Made by a program: the position numbers and the translations under genes
Part shown: in pieces, positions 848 through 58,487 of the stretch
Layout: every line of letters starts with the position of its first letter
How positions within the stretch are numbered: the first letter of the stretch is position 1
The notes under the pieces: model-generated
The model's database searches: none
What the model was told of the DNA's origin: nothing
The model's input: only the letters and a program-made list of their open reading frames with translations
From: an uncultured Eubacteriales bacterium
GTDB taxonomy: Bacteria > Bacillota > Clostridia > Oscillospirales > Acutalibacteraceae
Reading direction: 5' to 3'
Assembly: GCA_964454355.1 (NCBI GenBank)
Contig: CAYVTA010000002.1
Span: 8,428-72,427 of the forward strand
DNA length: 64,000 nucleotides

Positions 848-863
848 TTCAGAGGTGTTATTT

Positions 864-9448: not shown

Positions 9449-12610
<3,162 letters not shown>

Positions 12611-15714: not shown

Positions 15715-15729
15715 TCAAATAGTAATATT

Positions 15730-17593: not shown

Positions 17594-17594
17594 T

Positions 17595-32689: not shown

Positions 32690-33433
32690 TTATCCTTCGT
32701 AATCGTCTTCGTTCTCCCAGTTATGCCATACGTTCTGAACATCATCGTTGTCATCGAACATTTCAAGCATTTTACCCATACTCTTGATATCATCCGGATT
32801 ATCAAGTCTTGTGTATGTTGAAGGAATATACTCCGCCTCTGCTGAAATTGCAGTATAACCTGCCGCAGTAAGAGCATCACTGACAGCACCCACATCATGG
32901 GGATCGGTTCTGACCTGGAAAACTTCCTCTTCGTCAGTAATCAGATCTGTAGCACCGGCTTCAAGAGCAGTTTCAAGAAGAGCATCCTCATCAACGCCGT
33001 CTTTTTCTATAACGATATTACCCTGACGCTCAAACATGAACATAACGGAACCAGCTTGTCCCATATTTCCGCCGTACTTATCAAAATAGTGACGAACATC
33101 GCCTGCCGTTCTGTTTCTGTTATCTGTAAGAGTTTCAACAATAACCGCAATACCGCAGGGACCGTAACCCTCATAAACACACTCTTCGTAGCTTGTTGCA
33201 TCACCTTCGCCGGAAGCTTTCTTTATAATTCTTTCAATGTTATCATTGGGAACGTTTGCAGCCTTTGCCTTTGCGATAATATCCTTAAGTTTGGTATTTG
33301 CAGCAGGATCGGGACCGCCTTCACGAACAGCAACAGCAATCTCTCTGCCGATTTTTGTAAAAACTTTAGCTCTTTGATTATCAGTTTTTTCCTTTTTTCT
33401 CTTTATTGTACTCCATTTGGAGTGTCCTGACAT
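32690..33433 (-). CDS. yebC: YebC/PmpR-family transcriptional regulator
   Basis: MSGHSKWSTIKRKKEKTDNQRAKVFTK N-terminus. AAGGTGA RBS before the ATG at 33433. Confidence 0.92.
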   Translation of the reverse strand: MSGHSKWSTIKRKKEKTDNQRAKVFTKIGREIAVAVREGGPDPAANTKLKDIIAKAKAANVPNDNIERIIKKASGEGDATSYEECVYEGYGPCGIAVIVETLTDNRNRTAGDVRHYFDKYGGNMGQAGSVMFMFERQGNIVIEKDGVDEDALLETALEAGATDLITDEEEVFQVRTDPHDVGAVSDALTAAGYTAISAEAEYIPSTYTRLDNPDDIKSMGKMLEMFDDNDDVQNVWHNWENEDDYEG

Positions 33434-33566
33434 AAAAATCACCTTACATAAAAAAATTCTCATACATTTTATCACTAAATTGCATTTTCGTCAACACCGT
33501 TTTAAATATTTACCTGTTTTTCGGACAAAATATTTTACAAATATTCCTTAAGGACGGTTTTAAGCT

Positions 33567-36500
33567 GTGAACAGCATCATAAAGAAACTGAAAAGTGATA
33601 AAAAAATACTGTCAAAAGCATATAAAAATCATATTAAAGACCCGACTTCGGGATTTGAATGGCTAACTGATAATTTTTATATAATCGAAAAAATATATGA
33701 TTCAGCGTTGAAAGAAGCTTTAAAATTAAAAATTGACACCGACACAACAGCATTAACAAACCTTTGTGACAAAATATGCGAAAACGGAGTACTTCCCTGC
33801 GACGAAAAAATTATTGCGTTGCTTCTGAAAGAAAATCTGACAATAAAAGAACTGGAAAATATTGCCTTGTTTATAAAAGCTACCCTCTTATCCATAGCCG
33901 CCGATACCGTTGACAAGGATGAAGATGTGTTCTCGTCCTGCGTACAATCGCTTATAAGAATTGCAGAAACTGATTTCGGAAAAATTCTTTACGAAACAAG
34001 TGTAACAGAAAAGCTTCTCTGTCAGGATCCTGCCGGTATTTACAGAAACATGGATGAACAGACAAAAAGTATGTACAGAGAATCAGTTTACAAAACAGCG
34101 ATAAAAACAAAGAGAAGCGAAGCGGAAATTTGCGTTGAAATTCTTGAAAAAGCAAAAGCGGTCAACCGCCATATCGGCTTTTATCTTGATTTCCCCAAAC
34201 CAGACACAAAAATGGGGATTTTGGCTCTCACGCTCGAAGCAGTACTGCCATTAGCAGCAGGAATTATTCTTTCCGCAATTTTAAAAGCATGGTACCTTCT
34301 GCCTGTGTTATATTTGCCTCTTTGGGAAGGGCTAAAATTTATAACAGATTTTATTAATTCGAAAGCAGCAAAACCGAAACAACTGATGTCAATGGACTTT
34401 TCCCACAGCATACCTCTTAGTGAAAAAACAGTAATTGCTGTTTCTATTCTTCTTCCCGATGCTGCCTCATCAAAGAACATGACTGAACACTTGCGGCATC
34501 TCTACCTATCAAACTGCAAGGATAATGTATATATATGTGTTCTTGCAGACCTGCGTCAATCAAAAACGCCTACAACTCCTACTGACAAAGATGATATTAA
34601 TGCAATGAAAAGAGTAATTGATTCTCTGAATGAAAAATATAACGGAAAGTTTATCCTTGCAATCAGAGACAGACGTTTCTCGATTACGGAAAATGCATAT
34701 ATCGCTCACGAAAGAAAAAGAGGTGCTGTAACATCTCTTGTAAAGCTGATAAAAGAAGATAATCACGACTTTTCAGTGCTTCACGGAGATACAAAACAGT
34801 TAACAAACGCAAAATATATCATGGCTCTTGATTCAGACACCGAAATGCCTGCAGGAAGCCTTAATGCACTCATAGGAATCGGAGCACATCCATTGAACAG
34901 TCCTGTAATATCTCCATCAAAGAACCGTGTCACAAGGGGATTCGGTATCATATCCCCACGAATGGAAACTTCGCTGAATGCAGCTTCAAGAACTCACTTT
35001 TCTTCTGCTTTTGCAGGCTCAGGCGGTCTTCCTGCTTATACAAATACAGTATGTGAAAGATATCAGGATATGTTCGGCACAAGCATTTTTTCAGGCAAAG
35101 GTCTTATCAATGTTGATGCATATTACCGACTACTTCCTGACCGTTTTCCTCAAGAGCAGATTCTCAGCCATGATATTCTGGAAGGAATCATTCTCCGCAC
35201 AGGATTTGCAGGTGAAATTGCCCTTACCGATTCATTTCCGACAAATGAACACTCATACTTTAAGCGTCTTCATCGCTGGATCAGAGGTGATATTCAGAAT
35301 ATTCAAATAGCACTTGACCGCCGGTATAAGCAAACATTCAACGCTCTTGACAAATGGTGGTTGTCAGACAATATCAGACGTGCCTTAACTCCGACAATGT
35401 CAGTCATTGCGATTATTTTATCATTCATAATGCCGTCTTCGGCAGCAACAGCGGCTACGCTTACAGCACTGTTATCACTTTCAGCAGTTCATTTATTCTC
35501 AATGATAAGATCTCTGATACACGGAGAAATTGCTATAGTATCAAGACTGTATTTTTCCGACACAGTTCCCTACTCTATGAGCTGTCTGTTTAAAGCACTT
35601 ATAAATGCGATTACACTTGTCCGTCATGCTCAATGTGCAGTTGATGCGATTCTCCGTTCACTTCACAGAATGCTTATCAGCAGAAAGCATATGCTGGAAT
35701 GGACAACAGCCGCCGATGCAGAAAAAGAAAAATCATTTTTCTCGCTGATAAAAAAATCAATTATATCCTTTACGCTGGGCTTATTACTTCTCATTTTCGG
35801 AAACACAGCAATGAAAATTGCAGGATTACTGTTTATTTTTGATTTACCGTTTGCCGTTTTTTCCGGAAAGCAAAAAAAAGTTCACAAGCCTCATCTTAAC
35901 GAATCGGAAAAGAAACAGCTTTTATCCTACACATCGTTAATGTGGCGATTTTACGAAGATCTCTGTAACAAAGAACACAATTATCTCATTCCGGATAATA
36001 TTCAGTTTTCACCTGTTTTTGCCGTAGCCGACAGAACATCACCGACAAATATTGGGCTTATGTTATGTGCATTTCTTGCAGCAAGAGATTTTGACTACAT
36101 CGGAACTCAGGAATTATATTTAATGCTTTCTCGCTCACTGAATACAATTGAAAAATTGGAAAAGTACAAGGGAAATCTTTACAATTGGTACAGCACAAAA
36201 ACGCTTGATGTTCTGACACCCCGATTCATTTCCACAGTTGACAGCGGAAATTTTCTTTGCTGTCTGACAGCACTCAAACAAGGGCTTGTACAATACACCA
36301 ATGAATGTCCGGAACTTGAAAGCATAAGAGAACACATAGATTCAATTATAAACGGTTGTGACATGGATTTTCTTTACAGCAAAAAAAGAGATCTTTTTCA
36401 TATAGGCTATGACACACAAAGTCAAACACTTGCTTCGTCATATTTTGACCTTCTGATGAGTGAAGCGAGAATGACAAGTTATTTTGCCGTGGCAAGTGAC

Positions 36501-39500
36501 AAAGTTCCGTTAAATCATTGGAAGTCACTCGGTCGCACTCTTTCAAAAAGCGGAAGATATACAGGTCCCGTGTCCTGGTCCGGAACGATGTTTGAATATT
36601 TTATGCCTGCACTTTTTCTTCCTGATTTTCCCAACACCATAAGCAGAGAAGGCTTGAAGTTTTGCATTTATTGTCAAAAAAAGCAAGTAAAAAACATGAA
36701 TATTCCATACGGTATTTCTGAAAGCGGATACTATGCTTTTGATGTTAATTTGAATTACAGCTACAAAGCACACGGTACAGACGGTTTAAGTATAAGAAAA
36801 AGCAATAAAAATGAAACTGTAATTTCTCCGTATTCTTCATTTTTAACGATTTCTCAGGATCCGCACGGAGCGATGAAGAATCTGAAAGAGCTTAAAGATC
36901 TGGGCGTTTTCGGAAAATACGGTTTTTGCGAGGCAGTGGATTTTACAAAAAAAAGATGTCGGAATCGGAATTATTCTGTTGTCAGAAGCTATATGTCACA
37001 CCACATCGGAATGAGTTTTATTGCGGCGGCAAATGCAGTTTTTGAAAACACTTTCAGAAAAAGATTCATCAGTGACGATTCCATGCTTGCAAAAGAAAGT
37101 CTGCTAATGGAAAAAATCCCATCGGATGCAAAAATCGGGAAAAATCCTGCAAACAACTATAACACATACCGACCGGAAAGAACACAGCGAGCAAAAACAA
37201 ATCTTGAAAATGTTTGTGCAACAAATCCTGTCTGTGCAATGTATTCAAACGGTGAGTGGTCACTTTTTGCCGCAGACACCGGATGCAGTATTTCCTTATT
37301 CAGAGAAATGTCGGTTTTTAAATGCAGAAAAGATCCTTTCTGCTATCCGGACGGTATTTTTGCCGCTATAAAATACAACGAGGACAGTATCCTGCCCTTT
37401 ACCGATGCACCCACATACGGTAAAAATCCAAATATCGCAGTACAAATTTCAGATACGGGAATCGTTTATAAAAATTCAGACAAAAATTTTTCCTGCACGC
37501 AAAGCATAACGGTTCATCCGAAACTCCCCTGTCAAATCCAGACATTTCGTATTAAAAACAAAACAAAATCAAAAAAAAGTATCTCCTTAATGATATATGC
37601 AGAGCCATTCCTTAAAAAAATCGAAGAACCTGACACACATCCTGCATTTTCAAATATGTTTATTGAAGTATTTTATGATGAAGCTGAGAAAGTTTTAATC
37701 TTCACAAGAAAGACAGATTGTAAAGATAATCAGCTTTACATTACAATGGGCTTTTCTGAAAAATCTGAGCTTACGGTTGCAACAGACAGAGAGGGTGTAT
37801 TATCACCCACGACAGGCATTTTCGGCATTTTTGAAAACAATTTTAATATAAAATCCGAGTCAGTTGACAAGTGTATCGCTTTACAGCTTAATTTCAACGT
37901 ATCTGCCTTCAGCGTTCATTCTCAGACACTTCTGATTGCTGCAGCATCGAACAAAACCGAAGCTGTCAACTCAATAGTCTCACTGCGTAGATCTGTACTA
38001 CCCTCAGAAAGCAAATGTGCACCGTCTGTTTTTACACAAAATTCGGTCGAGGAAATTTATGCTAAAAAACTGTGTGAAAGATATCTGTTCGGAAGGTCCC
38101 TTTCTTCTGAATCAAAGAAGGCAGCAGCTATCAACGAAGGTTCACGCAAAGATTTATGGGAAACAGGCATTTCAGGAGATTTTCCGATTGTGTTGGTAAG
38201 ATGCGAAAAAGATTCAACTCAAATTCCCGCATTTATTGCAATGCATTCAGGGCTCAGACAGGCATCAATAAAAACAGAACTTGTGTTTATAACGGATTCT
38301 CCTCTGGGATACAATAACAAAATTAAAGATGCAGTTATGGCTGAAACACCAGACAGTGAAATTATAGGCAAACGAGGCGGGATTTTTATTATGAGCACAC
38401 TCGGAATGTCAAGAAATGCTCTGTCTGCTCTAAGCTGTGCCGCAACTGTTATTTATCCTGAAACAGAAACGCCGAGCGAAAATGAAAAATTTGTTTTATC
38501 CCCATTAAAAGCCTCAATACACAATGCTGATAAAAATATGTTTATAAAAAACGGGTATCTTGTCGGCAAAGAGACTTATCTTCCCTGGTGCCATGTTATA
38601 AGTAACAGAAATTTCGGAGTTCTTCTCTCAAACACATCATTAGGTTACACATGGGCATTCAACTCCAGAGAAAATAAACTTACGCCCTGGTATAACGATA
38701 CACGTCGTGTCTTTGGCGGAGAAATGCTTATTATGTCAACAGAAAACGGACGCTTTGATTTAATTAACGGCTCATGTGCGTTTTTCAAAAACGGCACCGG
38801 CGAATACTATGCACAAGCGGATGCATTTTCCGTGAGAACCGGTGTAAATGTTCAAGGAGAAAATCTGTGCAAAAAAATCGAGCTGACGGTAACAAACACT
38901 CTTGAAACACCGAAAGACATTGAAATCAGCTATTACTGCGAACTTGCATTAGGCGATTTTCCGCAAAAACAATTGTTTATAAAAAAAGAAACAGGTGCCG
39001 ACAGAATAATTCTTAAAAATATTTACAACAATGTTTTTGATGGTTACACAGTCATATCCGGTGACAGAGAATGTAAATTCTCATTTGACAAAACCGCATT
39101 TTTGGCAAACAAAAGCTCCGAAAATGATACGCACAATTGTGTAATAGCCACAAGAAAACTTCATTTGCCCGGAAAATCAAGTACTGATATAAAATTTTAT
39201 CTTTCTTACGGAAGCAGCATTTTTTCGGCAGTAAAAATGCCCTATATTGCACCGAAAAATACAAATACAAATCGAATAATTATTGAAACGGAAGACAAAA
39301 GCCTTAACCATCTTTTCAATGATTTTTTACCGAACCAGATCATTGACGGCAGAATTTTTGCAAGAACGGGATTTTATCAATGCAGTGGTGCATTCGGTTT
39401 TCGTGACCAACTTCAAGATGCAATGGCTGTTGCTGTTACTCACCCTGAAATACTAAAACTTCAGATTCTCCGATGCTGTGGTGCACAGTTCCGTGAAGGT

Positions 39501-40640
39501 GATGTCCTTCATTGGTTTCATCAGCTTTACACAGGCGGAAAACGTATTATGCGTGGTGTCAGGACACTTTATTCGGACGATCTTCTGTGGCTTCCTCTCG
39601 CAGTGAGTGAATACTGTACTGTCAGCGGTGACTTTTCACTTCTTGATGTAAATGTTCCGTTTATTGATGCCCCCGTTTTACAAAACGGTGAAATTGAACG
39701 GTACGGAGAATTTACAAAATCAAAATATACCGCTTCAGTATACAGTCATTGCATTACAGCCATATCTCATGCCTGCCGATTCGGCTCCCATTCACTGCCT
39801 CTTATAAAGGGCGGCGACTGGAACGATTCTTTTAATAAAGTCGGTATTAAAGGTAAGGGCGAAAGTGTATGGCTTGGAATGTTTTTGTCCTATGTGCTAA
39901 AAAAATTTGCTTTTATATGCAATTACAAGGGTGATAAGAAAACAAAAGAAACCATGAAAATGCTTGCTGTAAAAATTTTGAATGCGGTTGATGAACACGC
40001 ATGGGATACAAACAGATATTTGCGTTGCTTTTATGATGACGGAACTCCTATGGGTAAAATAGGGAACAGTGAATGCGAAACAGATCTGTTACCTCAGGCG
40101 TGGAGCGTAATTTCAGATATGCCAAACAAAGAACGATGCAAAACAGCGATAAATACTGCCTACGAACAGCTTGTTGACAAAGAAAACGGTATTATAAAGC
40201 TGTTTACACCGGCATTCAACGACAAAAGCAAAACTGCGGGTTATGTAAACAGATACCCGGAAGGTGTAAGAGAAAACGGCGGGCAATACACTCACGGTGC
40301 GGTGTGGCTTGCGGATGCTTTTTTCAGATTAAACGAGCCGCAAAAGGGATACGAATTACTAAACATTTTGAATCCTGCAAAGAAAAATACCGATATTTAC
40401 AAAACTGAGCCATATTATCTTGCAGGAGATGTTTATTCAAAAAGCTCAATGACGGGCAGAGGCGGTTGGAGCATTTATTCCGGTTCGGCAGGTTGGTTTT
40501 ACAGAACTGTCAGTGAGCAGATGTTCGGAATATCAAAATCCGGAAAAAATATAAAAATAAACCCCCGCCTTCCCGAAGAGCTTCGGGAAAGCAGGGTGAA
40601 AATTCAATCAGACGGTCATACCCATGAATTTAGGCTTTGA
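33567..40640 (+). CDS. NdvB/ChvB-type cyclic beta-1,2-glucan synthase-like multidomain protein (GT domain + glucoamylase-like domain + GH94 phosphorylase domain)
   Basis: GTG start 9 nt after AAGGACGG. GT-domain marks: DSD at nt 34830-34838, QILSHDILEG, and HRWIRGDIQ at about nt 35271-35297. TM helices flank the GT domain. Central-domain marks: TSPTNIG (TSP begins at about nt 36036), ISTVDSGNF, MFEYFMP. C-terminal GH94 marks: NSRENKLTPWYND, GFRDQLQD (nt 39396 onward), GGDWNDSFN (D at nt 39816), ENGGQYTHGAVW. Confidence 0.75.
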   Translation: MNSIIKKLKSDKKILSKAYKNHIKDPTSGFEWLTDNFYIIEKIYDSALKEALKLKIDTDTTALTNLCDKICENGVLPCDEKIIALLLKENLTIKELENIALFIKATLLSIAADTVDKDEDVFSSCVQSLIRIAETDFGKILYETSVTEKLLCQDPAGIYRNMDEQTKSMYRESVYKTAIKTKRSEAEICVEILEKAKAVNRHIGFYLDFPKPDTKMGILALTLEAVLPLAAGIILSAILKAWYLLPVLYLPLWEGLKFITDFINSKAAKPKQLMSMDFSHSIPLSEKTVIAVSILLPDAASSKNMTEHLRHLYLSNCKDNVYICVLADLRQSKTPTTPTDKDDINAMKRVIDSLNEKYNGKFILAIRDRRFSITENAYIAHERKRGAVTSLVKLIKEDNHDFSVLHGDTKQLTNAKYIMALDSDTEMPAGSLNALIGIGAHPLNSPVISPSKNRVTRGFGIISPRMETSLNAASRTHFSSAFAGSGGLPAYTNTVCERYQDMFGTSIFSGKGLINVDAYYRLLPDRFPQEQILSHDILEGIILRTGFAGEIALTDSFPTNEHSYFKRLHRWIRGDIQNIQIALDRRYKQTFNALDKWWLSDNIRRALTPTMSVIAIILSFIMPSSAATAATLTALLSLSAVHLFSMIRSLIHGEIAIVSRLYFSDTVPYSMSCLFKALINAITLVRHAQCAVDAILRSLHRMLISRKHMLEWTTAADAEKEKSFFSLIKKSIISFTLGLLLLIFGNTAMKIAGLLFIFDLPFAVFSGKQKKVHKPHLNESEKKQLLSYTSLMWRFYEDLCNKEHNYLIPDNIQFSPVFAVADRTSPTNIGLMLCAFLAARDFDYIGTQELYLMLSRSLNTIEKLEKYKGNLYNWYSTKTLDVLTPRFISTVDSGNFLCCLTALKQGLVQYTNECPELESIREHIDSIINGCDMDFLYSKKRDLFHIGYDTQSQTLASSYFDLLMSEARMTSYFAVASDKVPLNHWKSLGRTLSKSGRYTGPVSWSGTMFEYFMPALFLPDFPNTISREGLKFCIYCQKKQVKNMNIPYGISESGYYAFDVNLNYSYKAHGTDGLSIRKSNKNETVISPYSSFLTISQDPHGAMKNLKELKDLGVFGKYGFCEAVDFTKKRCRNRNYSVVRSYMSHHIGMSFIAAANAVFENTFRKRFISDDSMLAKESLLMEKIPSDAKIGKNPANNYNTYRPERTQRAKTNLENVCATNPVCAMYSNGEWSLFAADTGCSISLFREMSVFKCRKDPFCYPDGIFAAIKYNEDSILPFTDAPTYGKNPNIAVQISDTGIVYKNSDKNFSCTQSITVHPKLPCQIQTFRIKNKTKSKKSISLMIYAEPFLKKIEEPDTHPAFSNMFIEVFYDEAEKVLIFTRKTDCKDNQLYITMGFSEKSELTVATDREGVLSPTTGIFGIFENNFNIKSESVDKCIALQLNFNVSAFSVHSQTLLIAAASNKTEAVNSIVSLRRSVLPSESKCAPSVFTQNSVEEIYAKKLCERYLFGRSLSSESKKAAAINEGSRKDLWETGISGDFPIVLVRCEKDSTQIPAFIAMHSGLRQASIKTELVFITDSPLGYNNKIKDAVMAETPDSEIIGKRGGIFIMSTLGMSRNALSALSCAATVIYPETETPSENEKFVLSPLKASIHNADKNMFIKNGYLVGKETYLPWCHVISNRNFGVLLSNTSLGYTWAFNSRENKLTPWYNDTRRVFGGEMLIMSTENGRFDLINGSCAFFKNGTGEYYAQADAFSVRTGVNVQGENLCKKIELTVTNTLETPKDIEISYYCELALGDFPQKQLFIKKETGADRIILKNIYNNVFDGYTVISGDRECKFSFDKTAFLANKSSENDTHNCVIATRKLHLPGKSSTDIKFYLSYGSSIFSAVKMPYIAPKNTNTNRIIIETEDKSLNHLFNDFLPNQIIDGRIFARTGFYQCSGAFGFRDQLQDAMAVAVTHPEILKLQILRCCGAQFREGDVLHWFHQLYTGGKRIMRGVRTLYSDDLLWLPLAVSEYCTVSGDFSLLDVNVPFIDAPVLQNGEIERYGEFTKSKYTASVYSHCITAISHACRFGSHSLPLIKGGDWNDSFNKVGIKGKGESVWLGMFLSYVLKKFAFICNYKGDKKTKETMKMLAVKILNAVDEHAWDTNRYLRCFYDDGTPMGKIGNSECETDLLPQAWSVISDMPNKERCKTAINTAYEQLVDKENGIIKLFTPAFNDKSKTAGYVNRYPEGVRENGGQYTHGAVWLADAFFRLNEPQKGYELLNILNPAKKNTDIYKTEPYYLAGDVYSKSSMTGRGGWSIYSGSAGWFYRTVSEQMFGISKSGKNIKINPRLPEELRESRVKIQSDGHTHEFRL

Positions 40641-41052
40641 CATTCTTTCGATGAGCCATATAATCTTCAAGAATCATAACCGCAGAAACTGCATCAACAA
40701 CAGCTTTACGTTTTTTACCTCTTGTGTCGGTCATATTCAGTGCAAGATGGGCTGAAACAGTAGTCAGGCGTTCATCATACATCTGAACATCAAGACCTGA
40801 TTTTTCAGCAAGTTCAGAAGCAAATTCTTTACAGGCTTCGGCTCTAAAGCCCTGTGAACCATCCATGTTTTTTGGCAGTCCAACAACAAAGGCCTCGGCT
40901 TTTCTGTCTTTTGCGGCAGAGATGATCTTTTCGATAAGAGAGTCTCTGTCGCTTTCTTTTATCACAGAAACCGGCGAAGCGAGAATCTCATTTTTATCAC
41001 ACACGGCAAGCCCTGTGCGTACATCTCCGTAATCAACAGCCATTATAACCAT
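40630..41052 (-). CDS. ruvX: Holliday-junction resolvase-like / pre-16S rRNA nuclease RuvX (YqgF)
   Basis: MAVDYGDVRTGLAVCD motif, 140 aa. AGGAGA lies 6 nt upstream of the ATG at 41052. The 3' end overlaps the convergent giant gene by 11 nt. Confidence 0.9.
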   Translation of the reverse strand: MVIMAVDYGDVRTGLAVCDKNEILASPVSVIKESDRDSLIEKIISAAKDRKAEAFVVGLPKNMDGSQGFRAEACKEFASELAEKSGLDVQMYDERLTTVSAHLALNMTDTRGKKRKAVVDAVSAVMILEDYMAHRKNVKA

Positions 41053-41054
41053 AT

Positions 41055-43469
41055 TTATTCTCCTGCGGCCGCAGCAGCTACAGTTGTCGATGCATTTGCA
41101 GTGGTTGTTGCTGCTGTAGTGGTCGATGCTGCCGCTGTAGTACTATCGACAGGCACAGCACCTTCATCAGGCTCTTCTGCTTTTGCAGAGCAGTTCGTAC
41201 AGGTTGACGGAATTGAATCCTTTTTGTACCATCCGGTTGCTACGGAAGTACAACTCGAGCCTGCAATAAGACCTGTTGATGTACAGTAGGATTTTTTCAC
41301 GATTTCATCGCTGTATTCAAAAGACTTTGTGGGAAGGTCTGCATGAATCTCATTCATAACTGTCTGATATAACTTACCGCAGTAGTTAGTTGAGAAATCA
41401 AGCTCTTCTGCATGTTCGGAATATCCCATCCAGACGGCACAGACATAATAAGGTGTGCCTCCGATAAACCAACGGTCCTTCTCGTCAGATGTAGTACCTG
41501 TTTTTGCAAACATATCAAAACCGGTTACTCTGTATGCACGACCTGTACCGTTTGATGAGGTCGTTACAGTCTGAAGAAGCTTGTTCATAACATCAGCCGT
41601 ACCAGCTTCCATAACCTGCTCACCTGCATCGTTATGAGTAAGGTATACAGTGGACTCTGTGCTGTTTGTGACAGTGTAATAGCAGTAAGGCTCATAATAA
41701 ATGCCGCCGTTACCGAATGTTGTGTAAGCTGCACACATTTCAATAGCATAAACACCGTATGACATAGCACCAACCGCCAAAGGTGCATAATCACAGTCAG
41801 CAGAGTCAAGAGATGTTATCTTGAATGCATCCTGAAGCCAATTATAGCTCTTTTCCACGCCCATATTCTTTAATATCTGTGCGGGAACTGTATTGTGTGA
41901 CGGAGCTAACGCCTGCTGAATAGTCTCATAGCTTGTTGATGATCCCGGATCTCCGCCATAGTTGGTAGGCCATCTCTCACCGTTGACTGTAATACCGTAG
42001 TTCTGAACGAGAGGGTAAGACCATGTATAAAGATTACTTTCAATTGCAAGTGAATAAACACTCAGCGGTTTTATTGCTGAACCGGGCTGACGCTTTGAAT
42101 CTGTGGCAATATTAAGGCATCTTGCACCTTCCTTTTCGCCGGCCTGACCTATGATCCCCATAACTCTGCCCGTATAATCCATAATAACCATACTCGACTG
42201 AACAAGCTCACCGTGCGAGTTTGTAGATGTGGGGAATCCTTTACGGTTATAATAAGTATCTTCAAGCAATTCCTGAATTTCAAGATCAACAGCGACATGA
42301 ATCTTCAATCCGCCGTAATATACCATTTTCCACGCTTCATTATATGAATAGGAATATGCACTCATCAAATCCTCAATAACTGATTCGATAACATAGTCCA
42401 CATAATAGCTTTGAACTTCTGTTTCATCGTCACCTGAAGCGGCATCAGTTGAATTAAGATCAGCACTGTCGCTGTCATCATTTGTGGCAACGTAATCTTC
42501 ATCTGTTGTGAACACAAGGTCATACTCGATTGCCTCGTCATACTCTTCCTGTGTGATATACTCCTGTTCAAGCATACAATTAAGAGTATATTCCATTCTT
42601 TTTCTGTTTGTGTCGTAATTCAGAATGGGGTTATTTGCTCTGGGCTCCTGCGTAATGGCTGCTATACATGCACATTCTGCAAGATTAAGTTCGTCTACAT
42701 TTTTGCCGAAGTAATATTCTGAAGCAGTCTGAACGCCGTAACATCCTGCATCAAGATAAAGCGTGTTAAGATAAGCTTCAAGAATAGTTTCCTTTGAATA
42801 ATGCTTTTCAAGATTCAGAGCATTTAAAATCTCTCTGAATTTTCTGATATAAGTAACATCTCTTTCGCCCGTAAGGTTCTTGATAAGCTGCTGAGTAATT
42901 GTTGAACCGCCCTGTCCGTCATATGCAGGAACTATCATAACAGCAACCGTTCTTACCCAGTCAACACCCTGATGAGAATAAAATCTGTAATCTTCAAGAG
43001 CAACAAATGCATTTTGAAGATACTTTGGAATTTCATCAAGATTGACCCATATACGGTTCTCTTCACCGTGCAGTCTTGCAATCTCAATTTCATTTCCGTC
43101 ATCATCAAGAGTATAAAGTATCGTAGTCTGACTCTGATTTGCTTTGTACTCATCAAGGTTGATCGCAACCTCTCCGGTTATGAAATCTGACATATATTTG
43201 ACAAAATAAAGTCCTACAGATGATACAGAAAGCATAACAACAAGAAATAATGAGCAAAGAACGATGCCGACTTTTCTCATTTTTGTGCGATCCTTCTTCG
43301 GACGAGGTCTTTTTTCTTTCTTTTTACCGGATTTATTGTCTTCAGCTTTACCTGACGATTTTACGGTCTTATCATTTTTTGTAAGATTCTGTTTTTCAGA
43401 ATAACTGTTTCTGCCGGTGGGTCCGTTACTGTTTTGGTTATGGAACTCCGGTCCTTTCATTTCATCCAT
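41055..43469 (-). CDS. Class A penicillin-binding protein (GT51 transglycosylase + transpeptidase)
   Basis: GT51 motifs ALEDYRFYSHQGVDW, GGSTITQQLIKN and RKFREI. Transpeptidase motifs SAIKPL, SHN and KTGTT. Low-complexity Ala/Thr C-terminal tail. Confidence 0.9.
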   Translation of the reverse strand: MDEMKGPEFHNQNSNGPTGRNSYSEKQNLTKNDKTVKSSGKAEDNKSGKKKEKRPRPKKDRTKMRKVGIVLCSLFLVVMLSVSSVGLYFVKYMSDFITGEVAINLDEYKANQSQTTILYTLDDDGNEIEIARLHGEENRIWVNLDEIPKYLQNAFVALEDYRFYSHQGVDWVRTVAVMIVPAYDGQGGSTITQQLIKNLTGERDVTYIRKFREILNALNLEKHYSKETILEAYLNTLYLDAGCYGVQTASEYYFGKNVDELNLAECACIAAITQEPRANNPILNYDTNRKRMEYTLNCMLEQEYITQEEYDEAIEYDLVFTTDEDYVATNDDSDSADLNSTDAASGDDETEVQSYYVDYVIESVIEDLMSAYSYSYNEAWKMVYYGGLKIHVAVDLEIQELLEDTYYNRKGFPTSTNSHGELVQSSMVIMDYTGRVMGIIGQAGEKEGARCLNIATDSKRQPGSAIKPLSVYSLAIESNLYTWSYPLVQNYGITVNGERWPTNYGGDPGSSTSYETIQQALAPSHNTVPAQILKNMGVEKSYNWLQDAFKITSLDSADCDYAPLAVGAMSYGVYAIEMCAAYTTFGNGGIYYEPYCYYTVTNSTESTVYLTHNDAGEQVMEAGTADVMNKLLQTVTTSSNGTGRAYRVTGFDMFAKTGTTSDEKDRWFIGGTPYYVCAVWMGYSEHAEELDFSTNYCGKLYQTVMNEIHADLPTKSFEYSDEIVKKSYCTSTGLIAGSSCTSVATGWYKKDSIPSTCTNCSAKAEEPDEGAVPVDSTTAAASTTTAATTTANASTTVAAAAAGE

Positions 43470-43507
43470 TCAAATCGCTCCCTTTAAGGCGATAATAGCC
43501 GATTTAA

Positions 43508-43996
43508 TTATTCGGCTTTTAAATAATCCATTGATACCCAGCCTCTTTCGCCATTGTATTCAATGTATCCCCATGAAGGTGATGAACTGTCATCAACAAA
43601 CAGCACTTGCACACTTGTGCCGTTAGGGATAGCGACAATGGGACTGTATTCAGTTCCTGCGGTAGGACGCATATTAAGGTCTGCCGCAGAACCTGTTGAA
43701 ACAACATAAGACCCTGCACCGTTTTTTGTAACAACATCACTCGCAATCTCGTAATCGGTGGATCCTTCTTCAACAATATAAGAATCATTAGGTAGATTAG
43801 CAGAAGAATTTACGTTGTCATCCTTACCGGAGCTGATACCAACACAAATTAAAACGATAAGTACTATTACAATAACGATTGCTATACCTACCATCATAAG
43901 AAAACGCCTGTCGGCCTTTTTTATGCGTTCAATTGCAGTATTGACAAATCTGTAAACCTCTCTTACAAATTTCTGAAAATTAGTTTGCTTTGCCAT
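43508..43996 (-). CDS. Single-pass membrane protein with a C-terminal SH3b domain
   Basis: GGGAGGT RBS before the ATG at 43996. TM segment MMVGIAIVIVIVLIVLICVGI. SH3_3-like LNMRPTAGTEYSPIVAIPNGTSVQVL....WGYIEYNGERGWVSMDYL. Confidence 0.65.
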   Translation of the reverse strand: MAKQTNFQKFVREVYRFVNTAIERIKKADRRFLMMVGIAIVIVIVLIVLICVGISSGKDDNVNSSANLPNDSYIVEEGSTDYEIASDVVTKNGAGSYVVSTGSAADLNMRPTAGTEYSPIVAIPNGTSVQVLFVDDSSSPSWGYIEYNGERGWVSMDYLKAE

Positions 43997-44155
43997 AAAT
44001 ATACCTCCCGTACATACTTTCAAACTCTACGATAATAATCGTTCCCAGCGGATAAAACCGGATTGTTGAAACGTATCTGAATATTTCAATATATGATATT
44101 TATTATAACAAATGGATTTGTCAATTTCAACACTTATAACAATATTGTAATACTA

Positions 44156-44169
44156 TTTTGTTAACAAAA
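44156..44169. promoter_or_regulatory. Perfect 14-bp palindrome, candidate TetR autoregulatory operator
   Basis: TTTTGTTAACAAAA. It overlaps a -35-like TTAACA about 55 nt upstream of the tetR-family start. Confidence 0.35.
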
Positions 44170-44225
44170 AATTTATACAGGGTATATAAAATGTAAAAAA
44201 AAACGGTGTGAAAGGATCTAATTTA

Positions 44226-44798
44226 ATGAAAAAAAGAGCTTTAAGCAAAATTCCCGCCTCAGCAAAAAGAACGTATAAACTATTATCCGAATCTCTTCTG
44301 AAGCAGCTTGAAGAAAAATCCTTTGAAAAGATCTCAACAATTGATATATGTAAAGGTGCAAATGTTCCGAGAGCAACTTTTTACAATCATTTTGATGATA
44401 AATATGATCTGCTCAGATACACCTTGCGCAATGTCACAAAAGATATTATACCCTCTGTCTCAGAGAGCACATCAACAAACAATTACATAATAAAGATGAT
44501 TGAAAATTTCATTCAATTTACAATTGAAAATGAAAAAATCATCAAAAAAATAAACAGTGCGAACTACAACAGTATCCTGTTTGCGGAAATAAAAAACATA
44601 ATGTATGAAAATCTATACGAAATTATGACATACAAAGAATCGAAGAAAAAAGGTTATTCCGCCAACATGAAAATCGTTGCTCAATTTTATGCAAGCGGAA
44701 TCGTATATTCTGCAAAGACATGGCTCGATGAAGGAATGACCATTCCAAAGAATGAAATCATCGACAGTGCAAAAGCTATTCTTTTTTCATACAAATAA
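44226..44798 (+). CDS. TetR/AcrR-family transcriptional regulator
   Basis: HTH block FEKISTIDICKGANVPRATFYNHFDDKYDLLRY. GAAAGGA RBS before the ATG at 44226. Confidence 0.85.
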   Translation: MKKRALSKIPASAKRTYKLLSESLLKQLEEKSFEKISTIDICKGANVPRATFYNHFDDKYDLLRYTLRNVTKDIIPSVSESTSTNNYIIKMIENFIQFTIENEKIIKKINSANYNSILFAEIKNIMYENLYEIMTYKESKKKGYSANMKIVAQFYASGIVYSAKTWLDEGMTIPKNEIIDSAKAILFSYK

Positions 44799-44981
44799 AT
44801 TATTCATCGCCGGCTTCATCCTTTTTGGAGTTGGCGTATATTTTTTTGCATTCTTTCATCATCAAAATACTCGTCAAATAAAATCTCAATGCTGTTTGAC
44901 GCTTCCTTTCTCTCTGCTCCGGCATTCATTCTGAAAGCGGCACCAGCAGAAATCACTGCATCAAAAATAAAAAATCAGCAA

Positions 44982-45011
44982 ATTCACTCTGTCCGAAACC
45001 GAACAGAGTGA
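44982..45011. terminator. Bidirectional terminator hairpin between the tetR-family and rluA-family genes
   Basis: TTCACTCTGT-N10-ACAGAGTGAA. T-rich tracts follow on both strands (minus: TTTGCTGATTTTTTATTTTT). Confidence 0.6.
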
Positions 45012-45054
45012 AATATTTGTATACGCAATATTCAATTAGAGTTCTTAATACCCA

Positions 45055-46023
45055 TCAAAAGAGTTCATCATTATAAAATGCAGATCTGAACCAAACTTCT
45101 TTCGCTTCAAAATCGCTTCCGTTAAGATAGGAAAGAATACCTGCATCGGATGAAAATTCAAACCCTAACTTATAGGAATAAAGACACTGTTTTTTATATC
45201 CGCCGAGTTTTTTGTTTATCTCATTGGTGCCATACTTGCCGTCACCGAGAAGCGGGCATCCGATTGAAGCAAAATGGGCTCTTATCTGATGCGTTCTGCC
45301 GGTATGAAGCCTTACTTCAACAAGGCTTACACCGTTTTTTGTGTCAAGAACATTATATTCGGTTATCATTGTTTTTCCACCCTCGACAGGATGAGAATAA
45401 ACATGTACTTTGTTCTTTTTTTCGTCCTTTATCATGAAGGACGTCAGAGTGTTGCTTTTTTTCTTCGGACACCCTACCACAATGCACAGGTATCTCTTAT
45501 CAATCTCACGATTCTTAATTTTTTCATTCAGGATTCTGAGCGACTCTGCATTTTTTGCAGCAATTACTATTCCGCCCGTATTTCTGTCTATCCTGTTTGC
45601 AAGAGCCGGAGCAAAGGAGTTTTCTGCTTTCGGATCGTATTCTCCTTTTTCGTAGAGATAACGCTGTACTCTTGTTATAAGAGTGTCAACGTACTCCCCT
45701 TCATCAGGATGAGACAAAACTCCCGCTTTCTTATTGAGCAAAAGTATGTTTTCATCCTCATATACGACATCAAGGCTTGCAGGAGCCTTAAGAAAATCAT
45801 ACTTATCCTGTCCTGCTTCAAAAAATTCATCATTTATATACATATCAACAACATCGCCAACATGCAGTTTAGAGGCAATATCGCTTTTCTTTCCGTTTAC
45901 CTTGATACGCTTGATTCTTATATACTTATACATAAGATTCTTCGGCAGCATAGGAGCAACCTTTGCTATAAATTTATCCAAACGCTTATCTGCGTCATTT
46001 TGAGCTATTGTAAAAGATTTCAT
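45055..46023 (-). CDS. RluA-family 23S rRNA pseudouridine synthase (RluD/YlyB-like, with N-terminal S4 domain)
   Basis: ANRIDRNTGGIVIAAKN (catalytic Asp motif) and HTGRTHQIRAHF. The start overlaps the upstream stop as ATGA. Confidence 0.88.
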   Translation of the reverse strand: MKSFTIAQNDADKRLDKFIAKVAPMLPKNLMYKYIRIKRIKVNGKKSDIASKLHVGDVVDMYINDEFFEAGQDKYDFLKAPASLDVVYEDENILLLNKKAGVLSHPDEGEYVDTLITRVQRYLYEKGEYDPKAENSFAPALANRIDRNTGGIVIAAKNAESLRILNEKIKNREIDKRYLCIVVGCPKKKSNTLTSFMIKDEKKNKVHVYSHPVEGGKTMITEYNVLDTKNGVSLVEVRLHTGRTHQIRAHFASIGCPLLGDGKYGTNEINKKLGGYKKQCLYSYKLGFEFSSDAGILSYLNGSDFEAKEVWFRSAFYNDELF

Positions 46024-46784
46024 CCTGCAATTGATTCCTTCTGACCGAGTTCCTCAAGAATCTGCTCTCCTACAGCCCTTTTTGCCGCTTTAAGCTCTTT
46101 TCTCGCAACAGAATTCATAACTATATTAACAATAAACAAAGCCATACCGATAAACAAGCCATACGAAAGCTTTACGCTCATCACCTCAGGAATTGCCGCA
46201 TTAAACATTGAAGATGAAACAACTACGCATACCGATGACACAACAAAAAACACGAGGCTTAATACACAGCAAACAATGTTTCCTTTTGCATGATATCCGA
46301 AACCTGAAACAAGAATAACAACGAAGTTAAGAACACCTGCGACAACGCCCAAAAGTACAAACGCAAGGGCTGCATACAGAACGGTAAATGCCATACCGGA
46401 TCTTTCAAAAAAGATAAAATTAAACATTGAACCGATATCTACATTTCCATTAACTATTGCAAGAATAATGTTAAGCATAGATATGCCTTCACTTCCCGTA
46501 TCAAAGGGCAATGAGGTCGTAACCGTCACCATGGGAAACAGAAAAAATATCAAAGGGGCAAAAGTAAGTACAAATCTCGCAATCAAAAATTTATTTCCGA
46601 AAAGAGAGGTTTTGAATGCACCTACTGTTCTTCTGAAAGATTTAAATGATGCTTCCGCATTCTCAGCATCTCTGTCAAGTCTTGCTTCCCAATCGTAATT
46701 GGGAATATTCACTTTGCAGACGGGACATTCCGCCTTAACGTCAATCAAACGCAACCTATAACCGCAATGAGGACATCTTGCCAT
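46020..46784 (-). CDS. Hypothetical zinc-ribbon polytopic membrane protein
   Basis: N-terminal CPHCGYRLRLIDVKAECPVCK (CxxC-N14-CxxC), then about 5-6 TM helices. AAAGGA RBS. Confidence 0.6.
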   Translation of the reverse strand: MARCPHCGYRLRLIDVKAECPVCKVNIPNYDWEARLDRDAENAEASFKSFRRTVGAFKTSLFGNKFLIARFVLTFAPLIFFLFPMVTVTTSLPFDTGSEGISMLNIILAIVNGNVDIGSMFNFIFFERSGMAFTVLYAALAFVLLGVVAGVLNFVVILVSGFGYHAKGNIVCCVLSLVFFVVSSVCVVVSSSMFNAAIPEVMSVKLSYGLFIGMALFIVNIVMNSVARKELKAAKRAVGEQILEELGQKESIAG

Positions 46785-46809
46785 TTCTATTATCCTTTCT
46801 TAATCAAGA

Positions 46810-47688
46810 TTACTTATAAAGAGTAATTTCACTGACAATTGCAAAATGGTCTGAGGGGTAGATATCATTGTATTTGTCTGTTATTACCTTGTATGATACA
46901 GCAAAACCATATTCATCCTTAAAGAGGATATGGTCAATAGGCAGCTCACCTTCGGTAGAGCTCTTTGTGTAACCGTGATATGTGCCGATATCCATTGCAT
47001 CCTCTGCAACGTACATACTGTCAACAAATCCGCCATCAATAAGAGAAGCATACGCAACGGTATTAGCTTTACAGTTGAAGTCTCCCAATATAACCACAGG
47101 CATATCCGGAGCATATTCTTCTATTTTCTCAAGAAGAAGCTCTGCTGATTTATTTCTTGCAATAACAGAGAGATGGTCCCAATGAGAATTAAAAACAGCA
47201 AAAGTAAATCCTGTGTCCTTGTCCTCAAGAATTGCCCATGTACATATTCTGTTATAGAAAGAAGCCCAGGAAAGAGACGGTTTATCAGGTGTATCGGAAA
47301 ACCAGAAGGTACCGGAATCTACAAGATTATATTTTTCTGTCTTATAAAAAACGGGGGAATATTCACTGTCCGTTTCACCTTTACCTCTGCCTCTGCCAAC
47401 ATAAGAATAATCCTCAAGTCCCTCAGAAAGTCGCATAAGCCAGTCATAATCAACCTCCTGGAAACCTGCAACATCAGGCATTTGGCTTTCTATTGTCGAA
47501 ATAACACCTTCACTGCGGTTTTCCGGACTTTTTTCACCGGTACCTTTTATGTACACATTGTAGGACATTGCAACAACGCTGTAAGTATCTGCCGTTTCGG
47601 GCACAGCAGTCTGAGTCTGAACCGGAACAGATCCTGTCAGTCCGAATAATGCAAGAAAGAATGCTACGATTTTGTTCAAGAGTTCCAT
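46810..47688 (-). CDS. Secreted endonuclease/exonuclease/phosphatase (EEP) family protein
   Basis: Signal peptide. QEVD, GDFN and C-terminal SDHFAIVSE, which are EEP catalytic blocks. AAAGGAG RBS. Confidence 0.8.
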   Translation of the reverse strand: MELLNKIVAFFLALFGLTGSVPVQTQTAVPETADTYSVVAMSYNVYIKGTGEKSPENRSEGVISTIESQMPDVAGFQEVDYDWLMRLSEGLEDYSYVGRGRGKGETDSEYSPVFYKTEKYNLVDSGTFWFSDTPDKPSLSWASFYNRICTWAILEDKDTGFTFAVFNSHWDHLSVIARNKSAELLLEKIEEYAPDMPVVILGDFNCKANTVAYASLIDGGFVDSMYVAEDAMDIGTYHGYTKSSTEGELPIDHILFKDEYGFAVSYKVITDKYNDIYPSDHFAIVSEITLYK

Positions 47689-47707
47689 AAAAAATATCTC
47701 CTTTGAT

Positions 47708-54978: not shown

Positions 54979-54994
54979 TTTTTTTCACCGTAAG

Positions 54995-58361: not shown

Positions 58362-58487
58362 AAATATCACTGCCTTATAAATTTTATTCGGGTAAATTAT
58401 ACCACTACTTTTGTCAAATTGCAATAGTAAATAAAATAATTTAAAGGTTTGTATAAAAATTATAACATTTTAATGCATAAGCTCAAC

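Follow-up and report, generated by a model that had tools for sequence, protein, structure and literature searches.

The gene cgs, found in the 64,000-nucleotide stretch of DNA that was analysed (hereafter, the window), has a product that is, judged by sequence comparison and structure models, a homolog of the NdvB/ChvB-type cyclic β-1,2-glucan synthases (Cgs) and a compact variant of the known enzyme (Table 1). Its reading frame was earlier described as one uninterrupted ORF of 2357 codons, and it is so; it opens with GTG, agrees in its start with the N-termini of 11 homologs, and encodes 2357 aa (265.6 kDa). The local DNA has ~39% G+C, a composition shared by cgs and its surroundings, and a chance origin of an open frame of 2357 codons in such DNA is taken to be impossible. 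In phmmer comparison with Agrobacterium tumefaciens Cgs (AtCgs; PDB 8rf0/8rf9), the protein gave E=0 and 1017 bits over four collinear blocks covering residues 221–2354, and residues 776–1190 matched the cyclisation domain of Thermoanaerobacter italicus CGS (TiCGS; 8wy1) with E 9.7e-112. AlphaFold half-models of residues 1–1195 and 1180–2357 reached pLDDT values of 91.4 and 90.5, with a pTM of 0.89 for both. The top Foldseek matches of both are cryo-EM structures of AtCgs, at TMq 0.82–0.83 for the N-terminal half and 0.88 (8rfe/8rf0) for the C-terminal one, and superposition of the half-models on AtCgs predicts that the domains are also arranged in the same way relative to each other. The identity proposed in the preliminary description is borne out by these matches.

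Table 1. Predicted features of cgs and its surroundings (positions in the window; aa, residues of the protein).
Feature	Position	Strand	Basis or remark
yebC	32690–33433		divergent, upstream of cgs; window annotation
Divergent yebC–cgs intergenic region, promoter region	33434..33566	.	133 nt
AAGGA ribosome-binding site	~12 nt ahead of the cgs GTG start	+	sequence
Predicted Cgs gene (NdvB/ChvB-type)	33567..40640	+	ORF, Pfam, phmmer, AlphaFold models, Foldseek
N-terminal scaffold domain (NTD), aa 1–215	33567..34211	+	HHalign; all-helical (DSSP of model)
TM helices 1–2, aa ~216–268	34212..34370	+	hydropathy scan; model helices 214–239, 244–267
GT84 glycosyltransferase domain, aa ~270–600	34374..35366	+	phmmer alignment to AtCgs; residue mapping
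Y491 codon, predicted self-glucosylated primer tyrosine	35037..35039	+	alignment to AtCgs Y694, IF1-homology loop
TM helices 3–6 and interface helices between, aa ~601–770	35367..35876	+	hydropathy, model
GH189 cyclisation (transglycosylation) domain, (α/α)6 barrel, aa ~776–1190	35892..37136	+	phmmer vs 8wy1
Short loop, aa 911–916, at the four-helix insert site of long-type Cgs	36297..36314	+	phmmer, MSA, model
GP1 β-sandwich subdomain, aa ~1210–1462	37194..37952	+	DSSP of C-half model; superposition on AtCgs
Rossmann-fold-like (RFL) subdomain, aa ~1463–1630, retained	37953..38456	+	C-half model
GP2 GH94 supersandwich subdomain, aa 1673–1850	38583..39116	+	PF06165 best stretch; model
GP3 GH94 catalytic (α/α)6 domain and C-terminal β-sandwich, aa 1901–2357	39267..40637	+	PF17167, phmmer
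ruvX	40630–41052	-	downstream of cgs
Class A PBP gene	41055–43469	-	downstream of cgs
SH3 protein gene	43508–44023	-	downstream of cgs

The nearest known systems are Cgs/ChvB of A. tumefaciens (8RF0, 8RF9, 8RFE; PMC10901819) and Cgs/NdvB of Brucella and Sinorhizobium. One polypeptide carries the NTD, a TM segment, the GT84 domain, a second TM segment, the cyclisation domain (CY), and the GH94 phosphorylase module, collinear with 8rf0 and in the AtCgs order (NTD, 2 TM, GT84, 4 TM, CY, GP1-RFL-GP2-GP3). Pfam recognizes PF10091 at 963–1157, PF06165 twice, and PF17167 at 1901–2321 (E 5.8e-89); GP1 is one of the two PF06165 matches, for which coordinates were given for the best stretch only (1673–1850). 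Within GP3, residues 1901–2354 align by phmmer with AtCgs 2347–2800. The RFL subdomain, residues 1847–2012 in AtCgs (PMC10901819), appears in the C-half model (its residues 284–451) as a four-stranded unit in which helices and strands alternate. The hydropathy scan and the structure model place six TM helices in pairs, at ~216–236 and 240–262, 608–628 and 630–650, and 726–745 and 748–768. Because the number of TM helices between the soluble domains is even, and by comparison with the AtCgs structure, these domains would all lie on one side of the membrane.

The motifs quoted in the preliminary description for the glycosyltransferase, central, and C-terminal parts are all present in the protein: DSD (422–424), SHDILEG (534–540), and HRWIRGD (569–575) in the first; TSPTNIG at 824, STVDSGN at 889, and MFEYFM at 1008 in the second; and NSRENKLTPWYND at 1699, GFRDQLQD at 1944, GGDWNDSFN at 2082, and ENGGQYTHGAVW at 2236 in the third. 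In the phmmer alignment, the GT84 residues D328, D422/D424 (DxD), D536, R570-W571, and R573 correspond to D527, D624/D626, D739, R773/W774, and R776 of AtCgs; D536 is the predicted catalytic base and D328 the equivalent of the UDP-binding Asp. Y491, placed in a loop in the model, aligns with Y694, the primer tyrosine of AtCgs (PMC10901819). In the cyclisation domain, E966 (acid/base), E1010, E1052 (nucleophile), and H1145/H1146 map to E1356, E1400, E1442, and H1536/H1537 of TiCGS, the founder of GH189, which also comes from Bacillota (8WY1; PMC10834661). In the GH94 module, D1947 corresponds to AtCgs D2393 and D2084, the catalytic acid, to D2528; R1946-D1947 are also key residues. The roles of all these GT84, GH189, and GH94 sites are taken from published work (PMC10901819; PMC10834661). 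In a set of 119 homologs (91 compact and 28 longer), D422, D424, Y491, D536, R570, W571, R573, E966, E1010, E1052, H1145, H1146, D1947, and D2084 are invariant, and D328 is nearly so (115/119). The three catalytic domains are the best conserved parts of the compact clade (46–52%, vs 27–33% for the scaffold and TM regions).

The structural comparison also agrees with the earlier view of the N-terminal half as a processive glycosyltransferase: its top match is AtCgs, and the GT fold is recognized in BcsA and hyaluronan synthases as well. What they share is a GT-A fold topped by a TM bundle, together with the motifs D, DxD, D, and RW; however, the similarity to these two enzymes is remote (TMq 0.23–0.29), and the compact protein has no PilZ domain. 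The central region had been called glucoamylase-like, of which the (α/α)6 barrel stands, but such a domain is now classed as a GH189 cyclisation/transglycosylation domain (PMC10834661). In Foldseek, this domain matched 8wy1 with TMt 0.69, followed by β-1,2-glucanases of GH144, GH162, and the newer SGL group.

As was noted earlier, the protein is shorter than the α-proteobacterial enzyme, with 2357 aa vs 2818 aa for the 8rf0 chain. Most of the ~460 missing residues belong to two regions: ~190 aa to the NTD, and ~120 aa to the cyclisation domain, where the four-helix dimerisation insert is lacking. The N-terminal ~215 aa, previously regarded as unassignable, proved to be the Cgs NTD scaffold. 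A single-sequence PDB search with residues 1–215 returned chance antibody matches only, and the assignment needed profile–profile comparison: the compact and long NTD profiles, aligned with HHalign, matched at a probability of 100% and E 1.9e-42, with residues 4–117 matching template 67–199 and residues 118–212 matching 283–384. Compared to the canonical NTD of ~400 aa, the first ~65 aa and an internal ~85–110 aa are absent. In AtCgs, the primer is held by this domain, which is also in contact with the RFL subdomain (PMC10901819).

The second missing segment is a four-helix insert of ~120–155 aa (AtCgs ~1101–1230, TiCGS ~1149–1303), absent between residues 913 and 914. The phmmer alignments pass here from query 907/913 to 916/914, skipping ~130 aa of AtCgs and 155 aa of TiCGS, and the model has pLDDT 97–98 over the insert-less junction. 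TiCGS, an enzyme of the long type, differs accordingly by extra cyclisation-domain helices (chain residues ~146–300). Located outside the catalytic barrel, the insert takes part in dimer formation (PMC10901819). It is also missing in 149 of the 186 sampled homologs, including long-NTD and proteobacterial ones, and is therefore not family-defining. The C-terminal subdomains are somewhat shorter than in AtCgs, with smaller deletions in the GP region, as seen from MSA segment lengths. Unlike AtCgs, to which its identity is only ~25%, the compact enzyme belongs to a monoderm spore former. Since the dimerisation insert is missing, it would act as a monomer, and, with both the NTD and the glucan-binding landscape trimmed, it may form rings of a size other than DP 17–25. 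The loss of ~190 aa of the NTD and the shortened C-terminal subdomains mean, more generally, that chain handling, hence cyclisation efficiency or ring size, could differ in the compact form.

We consider it likely, from sequence and model comparison, that the enzyme works like the Agrobacterium Cgs and makes cyclic β-1,2-glucan from UDP-glucose, although the chemistry itself and the cyclic nature of the product are what we infer. The GT motifs, the primer tyrosine, the CY glutamates, the GH94 acid, and the predicted fold and domain packing are like those of AtCgs. In the proposed mechanism, the six TM helices would anchor the protein with all soluble domains facing the cytoplasm. The GT84 domain would glucosylate Tyr491 once and then extend this primer from UDP-glucose to a linear β-1,2-glucan, which the GH94 domain may trim by phosphorolysis via D2084. 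The GH189 domain would next cut the chain by retaining transglycosylation, with E1052 as the nucleophile and E966 as the acid/base, and cyclic β-1,2-glucan would be released in the cytoplasm with the primer regenerated. The TM bundle of Cgs does not provide a channel for translocation, and the glucan remains on the cytoplasmic face of the membrane (PMC10901819). Afterwards, it might pass through an unlinked exporter and be released through the wall, or it might be retained in the cell or spore.

With a trimmed NTD and no insert, the chain would also be presented differently to the GH189 site, and for this reason, it can be asked whether the compact enzyme yields linear or enzyme-bound β-1,2-glucan, or disproportionated oligosaccharides, instead of released rings. 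Besides the absence of ~190 aa of the NTD and of the cyclisation-domain insert, it can be argued that the isolated T. italicus domain gives cyclic or linear products depending on the substrate chain length (PMC10834661), and that the length determinant proposed for AtCgs in the literature is the distance from the primer tyrosine over the landscape to the GP site. However, the catalytic and supporting residues of GH189 are all invariant, and the cyclisation domain alone, with no NTD at all, is enough for cyclisation in vitro (PMC10834661). As a variable accessory, the insert is missing also in many long-NTD homologs, and the landscape-forming RFL and GP subdomains are retained (TMq 0.88). A product other than released rings is thus rather improbable.

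A mainly catabolic or recycling function, in which GH94 and GH189 process imported β-1,2-gluco-oligosaccharides while the GT domain is vestigial, is less probable by far. The C-terminal ~1150 aa resemble Lachnoclostridium phytofermentans SOGP (5H3Z) and cellobiose/chitobiose phosphorylases in the GH94 sandwich, the (α/α)6 fold, and the catalytic Asp; stand-alone GH94 1,2-β-oligoglucan phosphorylases are catabolic in Listeria and Lachnoclostridium, and the glycoside hydrolases of the window (GH2, GH35, and GH28-like) might be read in the same sense. Yet, SOGP and the cellobiose/chitobiose phosphorylases are soluble, stand-alone, catabolic enzymes, whereas the GH94 module of the compact protein includes the RFL insert and is joined to a synthase in one polypeptide. 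The 119 homologs show next to no variation in the GT84 catalytic residues or the primer tyrosine, with the GT domain among the best-conserved parts; the membrane anchoring is that of synthases, and no sugar importer or β-1,2-glucanase gene is linked to cgs. The reading that cgs came from a proteobacterium by horizontal transfer and survives as a decaying or non-functional remnant, as its shortness relative to the characterised enzymes, its lack of partner genes, and its divergence faster than that of the flanking genes could suggest, can practically be dismissed, given the intact 7.1-kb frame, the G+C equal to the surroundings, same-length full orthologs over a deep clade, invariant catalytic residues, and confident, compact models.

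The synthase reading leaves the question of export. In agreement with the preliminary description, no adjacent exporter or modification gene was found: the 64-kb window has no ChvA/NdvA-type exporter and no Cgm-like modification gene, and no transporter is encoded within 10 kb on either side of cgs. The sole ABC exporter pair of the window (15815–19319) was considered and rejected as ChvA/NdvA; it lies 14 kb off and scores far below the curated cut-offs of both NF010178 and TIGR01192 (399 vs 733 bits and 324 vs 585 bits), as a generic MsbA-like heterodimer. Of the related loci, only three, from Acidobacteria, were seen to have an ABC exporter gene immediately upstream of cgs.

The cell-envelope neighbourhood described earlier is real in that the PBP, SH3, and divergent yebC genes are present; however, the arrangement recurs only in the relative with 66% identity, by which a functional link of these genes to cgs was ruled out, and the neighbourhood is synteny, not a functional cluster. 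At ~38% identity, the context of cgs is radical-SAM/Lgt/FolD or GerABC/M16/Lgt. Clustering of the neighbours of 84 loci yielded only housekeeping synteny (two M16 peptidases, Lgt, and FolD), and none of these recurrent neighbours is in the window. Upstream in the window are genes for an H+-PPase, gpr, spoIIP, and spoVAD. A sigma-70-like promoter is predicted in the yebC–cgs intergenic region on the minus strand only, for yebC; the promoter scan found no site above threshold on the plus strand. About 115 nt of this region are conserved with one relative (L001), at the level of the yebC coding DNA; since this matches the nucleotide identity of yebC itself, special conservation of the DNA upstream of cgs was ruled out. 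Rfam gave no element near cgs, and its sole match is a ZTP riboswitch at 15637–15717. In one relative, a gerABC operon stands directly upstream of cgs, and in a sister clade, a two-component system stands directly downstream. Sporulation genes lie 6–10 kb from cgs in the window. A sporulation link of cgs was considered and not adopted, as proximity is the whole of the case for it.

In Brucella, Agrobacterium, and rhizobia, cyclic β-1,2-glucans are known to act as osmoprotectants in the periplasm and as factors in the interaction with the host. It is tentatively proposed, as an idea that we hold to be doubtful, that monoderm spore-forming Clostridia of gut and rumen might make cyclic β-1,2-glucan with a minimal Cgs acting as a monomer, and to an end different from osmoprotection in a periplasm, with a ring size possibly other than DP 17–25. 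If true, the product might serve as a protective solute, cytoplasmic or spore-associated, as a substance filling the space between the forespore membranes, the sole periplasm-like compartment of such cells, or as a freely released cyclodextrin-like factor acting on the host or neighbouring microbes. The gerABC, sporulation-gene, and two-component neighbours can be read as hints of such roles, none of them strong. Literature searches for Cgs physiology in Gram-positives/Firmicutes returned nothing. As to characterised Firmicute orthologs with a defined role, a point raised in the preliminary description, one domain of the long-type T. italicus enzyme has been characterised in isolation and in vitro (PMC10834661), but its physiological role is not defined.

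Cgs homologs are frequent across Bacillota among the matches listed, and the compact layout forms a large group, in which Oscillospirales-type Clostridia dominate and which includes the cultured Clostridium methylpentosum DSM 5476, whose ortholog has 2451 aa. The compact form is thus not peculiar to the present genome and is a modest architectural variant of the known enzyme. Full-length orthologs of the same length are found across a deep clade, in at least ~150 clusters at 50% identity, and together with the gene described here they suggest that many monoderm gut Clostridia encode a complete synthase. The earlier statement that the host is a spore-forming member of Bacillota is consistent with SpoIIP, Gpr, and SpoVAD being encoded in the window, and with the nearest relatives among the matches listed, which are MAGs of Clostridia and Oscillospiraceae. 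To a specialist, the enzymology as such will probably hold no surprise. As a natural "minimal" form (~266 kDa vs ~300 kDa), with the dimerisation insert gone and the scaffold domain halved, the compact Cgs could, however, show on which parts priming, length control, and cyclisation depend, and it could serve as a simpler chassis for cyclic glucan production; with C. methylpentosum DSM 5476 as a cultured carrier, the question is accessible to experiment. In one and the same genome pair, aa identity is 66% for Cgs and 77–95% for the housekeeping proteins encoded next to it, so that Cgs diverges faster. The glycoside hydrolases encoded in the window comprise GH2, GH35, and a GH28-like protein.

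Judged by its sequence and predicted structure, the 265.6-kDa product of cgs belongs to the synthases of cyclic beta-1,2-glucan (Cgs) as a compact variant of the family. The preliminary description had named it an NdvB/ChvB-type Cgs, and rightly so; the catalytic and architectural features of the family were all found, and the motifs quoted there lie where they had been placed. Pfam matches are confined to the C-terminal two thirds. The phmmer alignment with Agrobacterium tumefaciens Cgs (AtCgs; PDB 8RF0, 8RF9, 8RFE; PMC10901819) is collinear, residues 221-907, 916-1625, 1667-1828, and 1901-2354 matching AtCgs 416-1119, 1250-1987, 2067-2241, and 2347-2800, and the next match among solved structures is the cyclisation domain of Thermoanaerobacter italicus CGS (TiCGS; PDB 8WY1; E 9.7e-112). 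The structure was predicted in two halves from alignments that comprised 42 homologs (residues 1-1195, pLDDT 91.4, pTM 0.89; residues 1180-2357, pLDDT 90.5, pTM 0.89). In Foldseek searches against the PDB, AtCgs structures ranked top for both halves (query-normalised TM-score 0.82-0.83 and 0.88), so the domains are predicted to fold, and to be placed relative to one another, as in Cgs. For the N-terminal half, AtCgs was followed at lower ranks by beta-1,2-glucanases (GH144, GH162, and the newer SGL group) and BcsA-type synthases, and for the C-terminal half by GH94 phosphorylases, among them 1,2-beta-oligoglucan phosphorylase. These lower-ranking matches agree with what is expected of the domains. 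Hydropathy and the model place six transmembrane (TM) helices in three pairs, and the membrane anchor of AtCgs is built likewise (PMC10901819).

The start of cgs is credible because the N-terminus of the product lines up with those of homologs. The G+C content of the gene is the same as that of the flanking DNA. Its stop overlaps that of the convergent ruvX by 11 nt (window 40630-40640), which leaves no space for a terminator between the two genes. Upstream, the mechanical start of the divergent yebC is GTG at 33475; the true one is most likely ATG at 33433, giving the conserved N-terminus MSGHSKW, which results in a yebC-cgs intergenic region of 133 nt (33434-33566). About 115 nt of it is ~86% identical to the corresponding DNA (9826-10000) of L001, the locus of a relative with Cgs at 66% identity, and this equals the level of the yebC coding DNA.

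Four differences explain the short length of the protein: an N-terminal domain (NTD) of 215 aa vs ~400-450 aa in long forms, the absence at 913/914 of an insert in the cyclisation domain (CY), a 1625-1667 linker ~25 aa shorter than in long forms, and smaller deletions in the GP2 and GP3 regions of the GH94 half. Residues 1-215, earlier regarded as unassignable, are identified by profile comparison as the Cgs N-terminal scaffold domain. Profiles of 81 compact and 27 long N-termini were matched by HHalign with a probability of 100% (E 1.9e-42), query 4-117 to template 67-199 and query 118-212 to template 283-384; the compact NTD thus lacks ~65 residues at its start and ~85-110 residues internally. 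At 913/914, the phmmer alignments pass over ~130 aa in AtCgs and 155 aa in TiCGS. The extra alpha-helices at this stretch of TiCGS were termed unique to CGSs (PMC10834661), and in AtCgs it is a protruding four-helix motif of ~120 residues, which pairs with the C-terminal domain of another molecule into a back-to-back dimer (PMC10901819). In the model, pLDDT is 97-98 across the junction, and a Rossmann-fold-like subdomain is kept at ~1463-1630. Of 186 homologs, 149 lack the CY insert, some proteobacterial ones among them; because the insert is so variable, the compact clade is marked out more by its trimmed NTD. Compared with the characterised long-type enzymes, only accessory parts, the full NTD and the four-helix insert, are missing.

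Functional residues were mapped by reading the phmmer alignments against those defined experimentally (PMC10901819; PMC10834661). When 119 homologs (91 shorter than 2560 aa and 28 longer) were aligned with MAFFT, every mapped GT84, primer, GH189, and GH94 residue was invariant except D328, which is kept in 115. Within the compact clade, mean identity to the query is highest in the three catalytic domains (46-52%, vs 27-33% in scaffold and TM regions), as would be expected of an enzyme that employs all three activities. That the gene is decaying has little support.

Features of cgs, its product and the surrounding window (At, AtCgs; Ti, TiCGS)
Feature	Position	Strand	Counterpart or basis
cgs, single open frame, 2357 codons, GTG start	33567..40640	+	
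yebC, H+-pyrophosphatase, GH28-like protein, gpr, spoIIP, spoVAD	upstream of cgs	-	
ruvX, class A PBP, SH3 protein	downstream of cgs	-	
TetR regulator	downstream of cgs	+	
PF10091	aa 963-1157		Pfam
PF06165 supersandwich, two matches			Pfam
PF17167 GH94 catalytic domain	aa 1901-2321		Pfam
GT84 UDP binding	D328		At D527
GT84 DxD	D422/D424		At D624/D626
GT84 catalytic base	D536		At D739
GT84 RW motif	R570-W571		At R773/W774
GT84 arginine near putative UDP-Glc site	R573		At R776
Predicted primer tyrosine	Y491		At Y694
GH189 acid/base	E966		Ti E1356 / At E1300
GH189 supporting Glu	E1010		Ti E1400
GH189 nucleophile	E1052		Ti E1442 / At E1386
GH189 supporting His pair	H1145/H1146		Ti H1536/H1537
GH94 Asp	D1947		At D2393
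GH94 catalytic acid	D2084		At D2528
ORFs without Pfam match	6854-7732, 8577-9356, 46020-46784, 56619-58424, 61055-62116		Pfam

For the cgs product, homology and predicted fold are established, as is the conservation of all functional residues, and the best-supported reading of the alignments and models is that it would be a working Cgs following the published cycle (PMC10901819). It is proposed that Y491 would be glucosylated once by the enzyme itself, the chain would be lengthened from UDP-glucose by the GT84 domain and trimmed via phosphorolysis by the GH94 domain, and the ring would be freed via retaining transglycosylation by the GH189 domain, all at the cytoplasmic face of the membrane. 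We infer in this way both the chemistry and a cyclic product; a linear product only, or a catabolic role, finds little support. Since the dimer motif is absent, the protein is presumably monomeric, and the ring size may possibly be altered. The product may either be exported by a transporter encoded away from cgs or be retained. If a ring of ~3 kDa is exported from a monoderm, then it would probably pass out through the wall.

The compact variant is plentiful in databases, and the earlier sense of its rarity was too high. In a word-indexed search, an NCBI protein proved identical, the closest relative (66% identity) came from a Clostridia MAG, and dozens of homologs 2300-2500 aa long came from MAGs of Clostridia, Oscillospiraceae, and Ruminococcaceae; longer forms (2800-2930 aa) belonged to Clostridium sardiniense, Anaerosalibacter, and others. 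An exhaustive search with the N-terminal half among 1.84 billion cluster representatives gave 2918 clusters at E <= 1e-30, and the best 150 of these are, fragments aside, nearly all 2270-2680 aa long. Relatives were confirmed in at least 338 places in GTDB species genomes; cultured Bacillota among the matches listed include Clostridium methylpentosum DSM 5476, Paenibacillus harenae, P. humicus, Bacillus sp. OV166, Alkaliphilus pronyensis, and Inconstantimicrobium porci. When 186 full-length homologs were placed in a neighbour-joining tree, which is distance-based and midpoint-rooted and hence gives no direction of change, proteins with a short NTD and no insert cluster together, mostly from Oscillospirales-type Clostridia. 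Cgs genes are also present in MAG bins labelled Bacteroidaceae (L020), Bacteroidia (L055), and Muribaculaceae (L079); the first clusters with Clostridia-type compact proteins and the other two adjoin a Clostridium sp. CAG:780-like group, a pattern that points to either mis-binning or horizontal transfer.

For CAZy GT84, a total of 1930 proteins was reported (PMC12102758), and GT84 was reported in an Aneurinibacillus genome listing. A 2025 review describes CGSs as ~300-kDa proteins and calls T. italicus Gram-negative (PMC11842490), although it is a member of Bacillota; with this label, the question of how a monoderm uses the product was not raised in that literature. No paper on the compact form, or on the role of Cgs in monoderms, was found in the literature searched, and as far as that literature shows the variant is undescribed. 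The enzymology of compact Cgs is as expected; the interest lies in what cyclic beta-1,2-glucan does in monoderm anaerobes of the gut, a question now open to testing.

Within the 64-kb window, no beta-1,2-glucanase, SOGP, succinyl- or phosphoglycerol-transferase, or cgs-linked sugar importer was found, nor was a linked glucan exporter; the sole ABC exporter pair (15815-19319, minus strand) scored 399/324 bits vs curated glucan-exporter cut-offs of 733/585. The order yebC-cgs-ruvX-PBP-SH3-TetR is kept in the 66%-identity relative and lost at ~38% identity. Between window positions 32690-49210 and L001, flanking proteins are 77-95% identical and Cgs 66%; YebC, RuvX, the RluD-like protein, and DcuC reach 86-95% and PBP 77%, with the SH3 protein at 49% and TetR at 52%. 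Cgs has thus diverged faster than its housekeeping neighbours, and the alignments indicate that this divergence is comparatively rapid outside the catalytic cores. Across 84 loci, only two M16 peptidases, Lgt, and FolD recur as neighbours of cgs, and they reflect housekeeping synteny in part of the clade.

Other arrangements occur among the relatives. In seven loci (L031, L032, L033, L041, L045, L052, L053), which belong to the CAG:780-like sister group (long NTD, without a CY insert), the gene directly 3' of cgs on the same strand encodes an OmpR-type response regulator, followed in most by a histidine kinase; this is possibly a dedicated cgs regulator. An ABC exporter directly upstream of cgs was observed in only three of the 84 loci, all from Acidobacteria, where a 606-610-aa protein ends a few bases 5' of cgs (L073 7583-9403, L076 7692-9515, L085 7617-9449). 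This layout resembles chvA-chvB type loci, with exporters that are also below the curated ChvA cut-offs. In A. pronyensis (L072 4201-6675), a fused sugar-1-phosphate nucleotidyltransferase/phosphoglucomutase gene directly 5' of cgs fits a local NDP-glucose supply.

Elsewhere in the window, five ORFs of 254-601 aa gave no Pfam match at E <= 0.001. A ZMP/ZTP riboswitch (RF01750, 60.5 bits, 15637-15717, minus strand) lies upstream of the genes for pyruvate formate-lyase (13355-15586) and its activating enzyme (12627-13358). A dockerin type I protein (1759-2793, plus strand), which points to a cellulosome-type organism, and a GalE-like UDP-glucose 4-epimerase (855-1877, plus strand) are also encoded. 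At 53494-56497 (minus strand), genes for an MBOAT O-acyltransferase (54995-56497) and a weak DUF1574-like protein (53494-54978) form a pair that resembles polymer O-acylation pairs of the AlgI/DltB type.
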